Shown piece after piece: positions 8,174 to 13,308 of a stretch of DNA of 41,409 bases. The stretch is from positions 1 through 41,409 of the forward strand of contig CAXXSM010000117.1 of NCBI GenBank assembly GCA_963663405.2, given 5' to 3'. A program made the translations under genes and the position numbers. Within the stretch, counting starts at the first letter, position 1; the number at the start of each line of letters is the position of its first letter. Source of the DNA: a bacterium (GTDB lineage: Bacteria > Hinthialibacterota > Hinthialibacteria > Hinthialibacterales > Hinthialibacteraceae). Under the pieces are notes generated by a model. It worked only from the letters and a program-made list of their open reading frames with translations. It did not search any database and was not told the origin of the DNA.

Positions 8174-8848
8174 TTATCCAGCGTTTTCCAAGACAACACC
8201 TTCATCGGAAAGGGATTGTATGAATTTCTCAGGATTTTTCTTAAATTCCGGTTTACATTCCTCACAACAGAAATAAATTTTCTTTCCCTTGTGTTCAATA
8301 AAAATCTTTTTTGAGATTGGATTTCCTGAAACCGGGCATTGCGATTGGGTGAGAGTGAGGAGGACGGGAGCCTGTCCCTTTTCAAGCATTGCTTTGACTG
8401 TGCCGCTTGGATCATTCTTGAATTTTGCATCACAGCCAGGACAGCAATATTTTACGAGTATATTATTTTTAATTCCATATACTGTGTCCTTCGCGGGACT
8501 TCCCATGATAGGGCAAGTTGTTTGATGCGTCACGCCTTTTGCTAACGCCGGTTCTTCATTATTCTGACGGATTTTTAAAACCGCGCTGAGAGGATCCTTT
8601 TTTACTTTTTCGGCGCATTTTTCGCAACAGGTTTTAATTTGGTATCCCAAGTACGTAAATCCAGCGCCCTCAGTGACGGGGGCGCCGCTGATGGGGCATT
8701 TCGTCTGTGGTTTCCGCTCTTTCATGGCTTTGAGTTCAGCGGTGATTTGTTCCTTCATTTTCTCCGAGTCCGCTTTCTCAGAAGCGCTGGCGGGAATGAG
8801 TAAACATAGACAGAAAATGAGAATCCAGAACTGTCTCTTCATTGTCAT
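8174..8848 (-). CDS. Secreted YHS/TRASH-like repeat protein (three Cys-rich repeats)
   Basis: Signal peptide; three CP(I/V)xG...CCxxC...F/VKxDP-like repeats. Confidence 0.85.
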   Translation of the reverse strand: MTMKRQFWILIFCLCLLIPASASEKADSEKMKEQITAELKAMKERKPQTKCPISGAPVTEGAGFTYLGYQIKTCCEKCAEKVKKDPLSAVLKIRQNNEEPALAKGVTHQTTCPIMGSPAKDTVYGIKNNILVKYCCPGCDAKFKNDPSGTVKAMLEKGQAPVLLTLTQSQCPVSGNPISKKIFIEHKGKKIYFCCEECKPEFKKNPEKFIQSLSDEGVVLENAG

Positions 8849-12126: not shown

Positions 12127-13308
12127 TCACCACGATTTCCACCCAGAGACCTGACGGTGGGGGTCTTTTGGTCCGACGATTTCCAACGGCAATGAGAACG
12201 TCTTTTGAGTGGGGGGATAACAGATAGTATCATTGCAGGCCTGATAATGAACAATGATTTCCACTTTCACTTTGCCTACGGGCAGTTTTTCCCCTGCTTT
12301 GAGTTGAATGGCGGATAGAGGAATGTCTTTTTCGTATTGCGCGACTTGAATCTCAAGAATCGGATCGCTTTTAAATATTGGTTTTGGATATTCAATTGGC
12401 TTGGATAGTTGAATCTCTTCTGGAAGTTTAAGTTCGATGTTTAAAGGAAACATCTTTGTTTCGGTATTCGCATACACATGAAATCCTTCCGCGAGGACGG
12501 GCAGAAACGCCAGTTTAAATTCATCACCAGGAGCGATTCGGTCGTGTGACCACATCCATTGGGCGTTCAGGACATCAGCCGGATCAATGGTTGGTGAGGA
12601 GGAACCACTTTCTCTCTTTTCTTCGCTGCTATCGCTGATGGAAGAAGCGCTTTCCAACTTCGGGGTATCCACGCCTTCTATCTTGGCCAGTTCCTTCAAA
12701 ATCATGGACAATGGAGGACGGGCGTTAATTGATCCTGGAACTTGTGTTTGAATAATTCCTTTTTTATCGATCAGATATGCGCTGAAAAGTGGATACGGCT
12801 TGCGGGATACTTGTTCGGGATCGCAGACAATGGGGAATTCATTCCTGACGAAACCAGAGATCCGCGTCAGCATGGAGGGATCCCGCTCCAGCTGCGCGAT
12901 GAAGATGACTTCTGTATTTAATTGTTTGAATAATTCGTAATGGGCTTGCAACTCCCTGAGTTGCCTAAGACAGTACAGTCACCACCAAGCGCGGCCGGTG
13001 ATCATCGCAACGTTTTTTGAGCCGATAAAATCACGCGGGCTTATCTTTTTTCCCGAAGCGTCTGGAAGTTGTATATCCTCTACCGGTTTTCCCACGGTGA
13101 TAGGTATGATCTTGCCCGATTGGATTTCCTGGTTTTGCTTCACTTCCGCTTCCAAGGTTTGAAATTTGCCCGTTTTCATGAAGAATTCATAATAACCGGG
13201 AAGCGTCTGTTCAGCCTTTGTTTCTCCAGACCAAACCAGAGGGGAAGCGATGAGATAGATGAGCGCCACTATCAGAGATGAGTACGTAATATATTTCATC
13301 ATGGTCAA
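12127..13308 (-). CDS. Exported selenoprotein: redoxin (AhpC-TSA/TlpA-like, UxxC) fused to a DsbD N-terminal-type domain, 393 aa with Sec at TGA 12979-12981
   Basis: One frame reads GKPVEDIQLPDASGKKISPRDF...GRAWW-TGA-LYCLRQLRELQ...FPIVCDP; C-terminal GFHVYA and YQACNDTICYPP; hairpin 14 nt after the TGA. Confidence 0.88.
12948..12964 (-). promoter_or_regulatory. Putative bacterial SECIS element
   Basis: GCAACTC-AGG-GAGTTGC perfect 7-bp stem with G-containing loop, 14 nt 3' of the in-frame UGA; extendable by CUU/AAG with an AG bulge. Confidence 0.8.

Follow-up and report, generated by a model that had tools for sequence, protein, structure and literature searches.

Gene and domain architecture of the locus

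Our analysis concerns a minus-strand gene at 12127..13308 of contig CAXXSM010000117.1 (assembly GCA_963663405.2, a bacterium of the Hinthialibacterota), whose whole 41,409-nucleotide (nt) stretch is called the window here, and which quite probably forms a single gene for an exported selenocysteine (Sec, U) redoxin fused to an immunoglobulin (Ig)-fold domain of the DsbD N-terminal type (nDsbD). Translation with TGA read as U showed that the frame running from TTG at 13308 to the stop codon TGA at 12129-12127 has a sole internal stop, the TGA at 12981-12979, in the residue context ITGRAWW-U-LYCLRQLRELQ. Translation table 11 splits this same-frame gene into two open reading frames (ORFs), 12979..13308 (109 aa) and 12127..12951 (274 aa). 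A preliminary description of this DNA had taken the two ORFs for one frame broken only by the TGA and had placed RAWW-U-LY-C at the position of the thioredoxin-fold CxxC; the translation bears out the former, and the latter holds as well, with U108 aligned to the first Cys of the ResA WCxxC motif. Of the two starts, TTG 13308 and ATG 13302, the ATG (MMKY...) is the likelier, and residue numbers (U108, C111, C356, and C361) refer to the 391-aa protein that begins there. A whole-genome profile search recovered residues 1-391 as a single match containing "1 TGA".

The read-through protein matched two Pfam families above their cut-offs, AhpC-TSA (PF00578; residues 72-187, 6e-11, 42.8 bits, cut-off 26) and DsbD_N (PF11412; residues 260-373, 4.5e-11, 43.3 bits, cut-off 25), as expected from the earlier claim of a UxxC redoxin fused to a DsbD N-terminal-type domain. 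No NCBIfam family reached its cut-off with this protein, the best scores being those of the SelL-related redox protein (NF040769; 33.7 bits, cut-off 120) and ResA (NF002854; 33.5 bits, cut-off 170); the DsbD protein model (NF001419) scored 14.9 bits against a cut-off of 330, and DsbD_TM was absent from the gene. The AlphaFold2 model, built on a 74-row alignment, had a mean predicted local distance difference test (pLDDT) of 89.9 and a predicted template modelling score (pTM) of 0.84, with low values only in residues 1-30 and in the linker at 221-240, and its high pTM suggests a defined inter-domain packing.

The redoxin domain (12748..13095) was also found in the genome search, at C117:12748-13095 with 1 TGA. 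In a PDB profile search with 10 full-length sequences, it matched ResA (4e-12), TlpA (1.6e-8), DsbE/CcmG (8.6e-6), AhpE, and several "thioredoxin family proteins"; the thioredoxin domain of an MsrA/B fusion protein (2h30, 2fy6, and 2jzr) was also among the PDB sequence matches. Foldseek against the PDB returned Bcp (Bcp4), peroxiredoxins, and ResA at a template modelling score (TMt) of ~0.8. The redoxin has U-L-Y-C with no Thr in place of the TxxC/TxxU motif of true peroxiredoxins (Prx), and a 2026 review (PMC13188914) distinguishes in its table TxxU for Sec-Prx from UxxC for Prx-like proteins; judged by its sequence, the domain is therefore of the extracytoplasmic CcmG/TlpA/ResA client class and not a true peroxiredoxin, so that peroxidase activity is not implied by its family membership.

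The nDsbD-like Ig domain (12190..12531; C117:12190-12531 in the genome search) was matched by Foldseek to the nDsbD chains 6dps, 3pfu, 1l6p, 1vrs_A, and 1z5y_D with a probability of 1.0 and a TMt of 0.56-0.69. Its cysteine pair C356-x4-C361 (QACNDTIC, 12220..12237) corresponds in alignment to the two cysteines of E. coli nDsbD: a profile made from the C-terminal fragments, ...VsYQaCnds.lCYPPttk..., matched both in ...VTYQGCADAgFCYPPETK... (E 0.002-0.06). The pair was invariant in 29/29 rows of the C-terminal alignment (A1) and present in 38 of the 42 C-terminal fragments collected and in 7/8 full-length rows of a third alignment (A3). The domain is preceded by a flexible linker rich in Ser and Glu, ESASSISDSSEEKRESGSSSPT (12589..12663, ends approximate), with a pLDDT of 53 over residues 221-230 and 73 over 231-240, and its length and sequence vary among relatives. 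Both the Ser-rich linker and the following YQACNDTICYPP are present as the preliminary description had given them, and the likeness of YQACNDTICYPP to the E. coli DsbD motif named there was found again in PDB entries 3pfu, 1jpe, and 1l6p, which read VTYQGCADAgFCYPP with both Cys aligned.

At the other end of the protein, a predicted Sec-type signal peptide, MMKYITYSSLIVALIYLIASPLVWSG (13225..13302, end approximate), was assigned by eye from the hydrophobic N-terminus; pLDDT was 43-57 over residues 1-30. Its earlier prediction is consistent with the signal-peptide-like hydrophobic N-termini of 7/7 full-length relatives, again judged by eye (e.g., ...SVPVFSAQA/EAE in L020). A conserved extension follows at 13108..13206, LPGYYEFFxKTG...E..R....I..G, which is specific to this family and had no Pfam match; P35 was invariant (alignment A2), and its two helices (36-41 and 51-61) were modeled at pLDDT 85-98. 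The protein ends in a G-W-x-x-W tail (12130..12144), with G270 and W274 invariant in A1. A promoter/terminator scan of the locus gave consensus-level hits only, with one weak hairpin at 12134-12121 overlapping the stop codon.

The in-frame TGA and its decoding

Our searches recovered this family in pieces that meet at the TGA (U108, 12979..12981). A word-indexed search over 5.8 billion clusters returned 31 proteins, 29 of which were fragments of 234-281 aa downstream of the TGA (one being the window's own ORF), while the other two were true DsbD proteins with weak matches. The 28 non-self relatives were thus C-terminal fragments only, bearing out the expectation that standard annotation splits the gene; one carries the NCBI name "hypothetical protein", and all aligned fragments (A1) start at or after the residue next to ...LYCLRQLRE. 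An exhaustive HMMER search of 1.84 billion representatives gave 1036 matches at E<=0.001. Among the best 150 of these 1036, which were listed, 24/24 short N-terminal fragments ended in ...R[AST]WW, the last residue before the TGA; these are all the listed short proteins whose match ends at residue 107, with P0102 (110 aa, ending at residue 81) excluded. Conversely, 0/42 C-terminal fragments (28 from the word index and 14 from HMMER, with the shorter P0043, P0045, P0048, and P0052 excluded) extended to the U position.

A scan of 185,579 species genomes found five full-length loci (L019-L023) that cover approximately the whole 274-aa query (residues 1-256 in L022) at 36-57% identity in the C-terminal part, and a metagenome scan added L099, L100 (cut 5' of the TGA site), and the distant L101/L102. 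The TGA occurred at the same codon in 7/7 fusion-clade loci with DNA, namely the window and six relatives 38-57% identical to it (L019-L023 and L099), in which the upstream in-frame reading gave WW-U-[LF][YF]-C-[LI]-R-Q-L, an LPGYYxFF... N-terminal part, and a hydrophobic N-terminus. L101/L102, ~23-25% identical to the window clade, keep the TGA (AAW-U-PFC) and have no signal peptide. Stop-reading whole-genome searches reported exactly "1 TGA" in the match for the window's genome (G000) and for G002 and G035-G038. Around the U-L-Y-C motif (12970..12981), W107, position 108 (U/C), C111, Q114, L115, and E117 were invariant in 10 sequences. TGC or TGT in reads at this codon would speak against Sec, as the preliminary description had stated; the contigs of runs X1 (which may be the source) and X2, from two studies, are identical to the window over the TGA, and a ~92% identical relative in X5 had no change at 12979-12981 among the differences listed, with 15 more outside these. 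A homologue with Cys at the TGA, which had been proposed as a check, was found in P0041 (427 aa, 30% identical), which reads WWCLYC and is the only full-length gene-finder call of the clade among the matches listed; the distant P0118 reads YWCPYC at this position, and P0126, a duplicated Cys-type fusion, has Ser there.

It is scarcely credible, given these patterns, that the TGA acts as a true stop, or arose as a nonsense mutation, so that the locus would hold two genes or a pseudogene without read-through. The locus is split by gene callers everywhere, which would fit this explanation, as would the apparently frameshifted selB of the present assembly described below. However, the truncation would fall at the active site of the thioredoxin fold, a Cys form is known (P0041), and the downstream piece would be without a signal peptide; moreover, the stretch of nine codons from the TGA to the next potential start is kept in frame (L[YF]C[LI]RQLxE) in 7/7 loci, and the TGA is kept across genomes that differ widely in base composition.

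The conservation of an RNA signal next to the TGA was evident from a hairpin resembling a Sec insertion sequence (SECIS), GCAACUC-AGG-GAGUUGC (12948..12964, minus strand), whose 7-bp stem begins 14 nt after the UGA. It was compared across 19 sequences: seven fusion genes, L101, and 11 stand-alone Sec redoxins from other genomes. The alignment is gap-free with a fixed spacing to the TGA, and 97.7% of the stem cells were paired, compared with 10-44% when the 3' partner was slid by 1-3 columns. Three stem pairs changed on both sides, and 0/500 shuffles matched the observed covariation score; because the aligned sequences are related to one another, these shuffle figures should not be taken as probabilities, although both pair types occur in both clades. 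At stem pair 4, 10 sequences have G-C, eight have A-U, and one has G-U, through synonymous Gln (CAG/CAA) and Leu (CUG/UUG) codons, while stem pair 7 alternates between C-G and G-C, accompanied by a Glu/Gln (GAG/CAG) and a synonymous Leu change. The loop had a G in 19/19 sequences, and hairpin energies ranged from -7.1 to -11.6 kcal/mol. The support for the hairpin lies in this cross-sequence comparison and not in its energy, since the 81-nt stretch folded whole was not unusually stable (z = 0.09). An Rfam scan of 12700-13200 at E<=10 gave four sub-threshold chance matches to snoRNAs and no SECIS family. The hairpin overlaps the codons of the invariant Q-L-x-E-L-Q, so that the RNA stem and the protein motif constrain the same bases. 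The TTG start (12951) that gene callers assign to the 274-aa ORF falls within the 3' arm of the hairpin (GAG-TTG-CAA).

The genes for Sec insertion were found on contig C22 of the same genome, each above its cut-off: tRNA-Sec (69.2 bits), selA (530.6), selD (342), and selB (250.2). One point weighs against Sec insertion here: selB spans two frames (49539-49676 and 49687-51420) with the junction near a CCCC run, and a real frameshift would mean that insertion fails in the organism. The sole DsbD of this genome (C94:71-1887, L121) is equally broken, into three overlapping frames (71-349, 294-944, and 619-1887), and the Logan contig had a word depth of ~2-3; for these reasons, we suspect assembly indel errors in both genes, with real pseudogenes as the alternative. 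The Sec cluster itself (C22:30979-51420, L160) starts with tRNA-Sec, a 676-aa unknown, selA, and a gene for a 2-hydroxyglutaryl-CoA dehydratase D-like protein (HGD-D), followed by selD fused to a CMD/AhpD-like domain (550 aa). After selD come three paralogues of 636-701 aa with an AhpC-TSA/thioredoxin-like domain, two of which also have a T2SS-G-like domain, and then further unknowns and selB, which places these redoxins between selD and selB.

A further explanation is read-through in which near-cognate or recoded decoding places Trp, Cys, or Gly, instead of Sec, at the UGA; the fact that the inserted residue is not decidable from sequence alone lends it some room. It is very improbable, as TGA is otherwise an ordinary terminator in this genome, ending 818/2246 open frames of at least 400 codons, and as a covarying conserved hairpin stands at SECIS distance, the Sec gene set is present, homologues have a redox Cys at this position, and PF00578 UxxC redoxins are an established selenoprotein kind. 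Collectively, the conserved TGA, the SECIS-like hairpin, the Sec genes, and the Cys homologue indicate that the gene product is very probably a selenoprotein, and we hold it highly likely that the read-through gene is a mis-annotated selenoprotein gene.

Two further selenoprotein candidates appeared in these genomes. One is a second candidate for export in the window's genome (C76:129959-131815, plus strand, L146), with a TGA at 130967; its start, MMKCIVVVLLLFSVAG, resembles a signal peptide, a long N-terminal part follows, and an AhpC-TSA/TlpA-like domain containing FRAG-U-PAC (74.6 bits, "1 TGA") precedes ~200 more residues, with a GGAGA...UCUCC inverted repeat after the TGA. The other (L131; G038:C11:408523-412029, minus strand, in the genome of L023) is a Sec redoxin candidate, YRRAT-U-GRC, in a 769-aa frame with two TGA codons and the hairpin GCAGCUC-GGA-GAGCUGC.

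Distribution and a proposed electron relay

The fusion was present in 2/35 genomes of the window's phylum and in 1/401 sampled genomes of the class of G035, and the records of its relatives are mostly labelled as metagenome-assembled genomes of Planctomycetota. In the window, ~8 kb around the gene held nothing redox-related, the neighbors being an aldo-keto reductase, a rhamnosidase, an aminotransferase, a YHS protein, and unknowns; the gene stands alone and is probably monocistronic. At 8174-8848 (minus strand), ~3.3 kb from the gene, lies a protein of 224 aa whose C-terminal domain is of the YHS/TRASH metal-binding type; no link to it was established. Nine further genomes among the 401 carried stand-alone or differently fused Sec redoxins (WU[P]xC) with the same hairpin. 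These (L132-L141) are ~320-340 aa long, with an N-terminal part of 200-240 aa and a C-terminal redoxin reading TYRA[FH]W-U-P[FY]C..QL.[QE]L[QH]; all have the in-frame TGA and the hairpin, all would be split by gene callers, and the upstream open frame of L132 extends over ~550 codons.

A membrane DsbD was found in 6/6 fusion-bearing genomes, so that an electron source would be available in each: the window's genome has DsbD_N and DsbD_TM, its only DsbD_TM lying on C94, and G002, G035, G036, G037, and G038 have both in one open frame, with additional short DsbD_TM-only frames in G035 and G038. A role of the fused domain as a trans-acting alpha domain in a host with CcdA only was ruled out, as a DsbD that includes a DsbD_N of its own is encoded in 6/6 host genomes.

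We propose that the UGA at 12979-12981 would be decoded as Sec by SelB and tRNA-Sec, recruited by the 7-bp hairpin 14 nt downstream, and that the resulting protein of ~391 aa would be exported by means of its signal peptide. The U-x-x-C active site of the redoxin would form a selenenylsulfide/selenol-thiol couple, and the protein could serve as a periplasmic thiol-disulfide reductase fed by the DsbD pathway: the thioredoxin-like domain of membrane DsbD would reduce the fused nDsbD-like cysteine pair in trans, this pair would reduce the Se-S bond of the redoxin in cis, and the selenolate would then attack the final oxidized substrate, which might be a protein disulfide, a sulfenate, or a peroxide. 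Characterized nDsbD receives electrons from a thioredoxin-fold domain and passes them on to clients of the CcmG/DsbC type, and the titles of PDB entries 1vrs and 1z5y describe nDsbD complexed with its own C-terminal domain and with a partner. A domain that accepts from a thioredoxin fold and donates to clients makes transfer in cis between the Ig pair and UxxC a natural reading, and redoxin/DsbD_N pairing is recurrent, with further Cys-type fusions in P0118, P0059 (with TPR repeats), and the duplicated P0126. The existence of such a cis relay, which the preliminary description had proposed as a single-chain extracytoplasmic Sec-to-dithiol relay, is a serious possibility that we advance tentatively. 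The order from DsbD through the Ig-domain pair and the Se-S bond to the substrate is preferred because characterized nDsbD donates to CcmG/TlpA/ResA and the redoxin is of client type by sequence; as a specific order, it is nevertheless rather unlikely to be correct in full.

Several observations speak against the relay. P0041 and 4/42 C-terminal fragments (P0044, P0047, P0049, and P0051) have lost both nDsbD Cys, so that the Ig domain cannot act as a redox relay throughout the family; P0041 and P0044 share 55% identity, which places the Cys-less forms in one subclade. The host DsbD already has its own nDsbD, and the fused domain thus fills no gap. A selenenylsulfide is expected to be thermodynamically harder to reduce than a disulfide, which would favor flow in the reverse direction. 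No neighbor is shared among L019-L023, L099, and L101, the neighbors differing at every locus, and hence no partner or substrate of a relay is indicated.

These observations bear on another role for the Ig domain, as a docking, capping, or substrate-binding module, with the UxxC redoxin reduced directly by the nDsbD of membrane DsbD or by CcdA, in the manner of free-standing CcmG/TlpA/ResA; we consider this tenable but on balance doubtful. It accords with the five members that keep the redoxin motif after losing both Ig-domain Cys, with the complete DsbD of each host genome and the DsbD_TM-only short frames in G035 and G038, and with the WUxxC...QLxxLQ Sec redoxins of the 9/401 genomes, which have no Ig domain. 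Against it, the main clade keeps the Cys pair without exception (29/29, A1), exactly at the position of the nDsbD redox pair, and the distant fusions L101, P0118, P0059, and P0126 retain the pair as well.

The relay might also run in reverse, with the Sec redoxin reducing the fused nDsbD-like domain, which would then serve several periplasmic clients as a soluble "gamma-alpha" half of DsbD. Within DsbD, the thioredoxin-fold domain does reduce nDsbD (title of 1vrs), a selenol-thiol couple should be a stronger reductant than a dithiol, and the short DsbD_TM frames of G035 and G038 are CcdA-like. This direction is nonetheless unlikely: the redoxin is of the client class by sequence, with PDB matches to ResA, TlpA, and DsbE/CcmG, the DsbD relatives from the word-indexed search have thioredoxin Pfam families other than AhpC-TSA, and six of the six genomes already have a DsbD carrying its own nDsbD.

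For the cis relay, the distribution of Sec in the family is suggestive. Sec is nearly fixed: the one Cys form, which has itself lost the Ig-domain Cys, stands beside dozens of Sec-type clusters. This suggests that the cis relay might work, or be needed, only with selenium chemistry. The protein could then be a soluble two-centre periplasmic reductase, in which an nDsbD-type dithiol and a selenenylsulfide redoxin are coupled in cis, and so an unrecognized Sec-dependent branch of the DsbD pathway; we offer this as a speculative proposal whose correctness is improbable rather than expected. If it were true, one use could be the very fast reduction of hard envelope substrates, for example peroxides, sulfenates, or polysulfides.

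Prx-like selenoproteins of the UxxC type are a well-known kind and the fusion gene is rare, which limits the reach of these findings. Every database relative found exists as two truncated "hypothetical" pieces, and the annotation of 28 C-terminal clusters (90% identity) and of 24 N-terminal and further C-terminal clusters (50% identity) would be mended by a family model that carries U in the active site. With this family, the reductive systems of the envelope would gain an exported Sec redoxin that brings its own DsbD-type partner domain, and the protein could offer a natural single-chain system for electron transfer from nDsbD to a redoxin and for the contribution of selenium to it. Its hairpin within the Q-L-x-E-L-Q codons also illustrates clearly how the same bases can be constrained both by an RNA signal and by a protein motif.

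Comparison with known systems

The kind of redoxin encoded here is already known. The table of PMC13188914 lists "Prx-like thiol:disulfide oxidoreductase, PF00578, UxxC/UxxU" among high-confidence prokaryotic selenoproteins, alongside several TlpA-like and thiol-disulfide-isomerase-like families, and this review cites Kryukov & Gladyshev 2004 for the Prx-like thiol:disulfide oxidoreductase selenoproteins; a count in PMC1794560 places the Prx-like family in 8 genomes. The main text of a survey of marine Global Ocean Sampling data (Zhang & Gladyshev 2008, PMC2398784) describes several domain fusions of thioredoxin-fold selenoproteins, none with DsbD, a word that occurs 0 times there. Reads under "#Prx-like 1" in its Dataset S1 have a signal peptide, ADW-U-PYC, and a C-terminal ...MHVYAPG...YQACDDAICY..., one example being ...HRSADWUPYCKAQLVELQ...MHVYAPG...YQACDDAICY; by sequence, this is a distant, L101-like form of the same architecture. 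Prx-like 1 and the window protein have in common the AhpC-TSA thioredoxin fold, Sec as the first residue of UxxC, and a WU..C..QL.EL.. core, while the window clade has its own WWU[LF][YF]C and the N-terminal LPGYY extension. The passages on Prx-like 1 in PMC13188914 and PMC2398784 mention no DsbD-type domain, and the fusion was undescribed in the open-access literature searched, a search that excluded subscription-only papers; as far as that literature shows, neither the WWULYC clade with its N-terminal extension nor an identification of the DsbD_N domain is in print. According to PMC2398784, Cys members greatly outnumber Sec members in most selenoprotein families, a rule that the family of the window protein reverses, its Sec forms being far commoner than its Cys forms.

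The Ig domain shares with the alpha domain of E. coli and Neisseria DsbD (PF11412; 1l6p, 3pfu, 6dps, 1vrs, and 1z5y) the Ig-like fold, the ...YQ[AG]C....C.PP pair, and a G[FWY]H[VI]Y-type strand. It differs in that it is not joined to the DsbD membrane domain, and hence would be soluble, and in that it lies C-terminal to a client-type redoxin; its pair is C-x4-C against C-x5-C in E. coli, and it resembles the solved chains weakly in sequence (E 0.002-0.06). Among proteins of solved structure, ResA, TlpA, and CcmG (DsbE) come closest to the redoxin in sequence and are likewise extracytoplasmic, with their CxxC at the position of UxxC, whereas they are Cys-based, membrane-anchored or free single-domain proteins that receive electrons in trans from CcdA or DsbD. 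A precedent for reductive and antioxidant chains in the envelope is the Caulobacter pathway from ScsB through TlpA to PprX or PrxL, in which, according to PMC3322552, the alpha domain of a DsbD-family protein feeds periplasmic thioredoxin-like and peroxiredoxin-like proteins. In that account, the components are separate Cys proteins and the alpha domain belongs to a membrane protein, whereas the window protein appears to combine an alpha-type domain and a Sec redoxin on one soluble chain.

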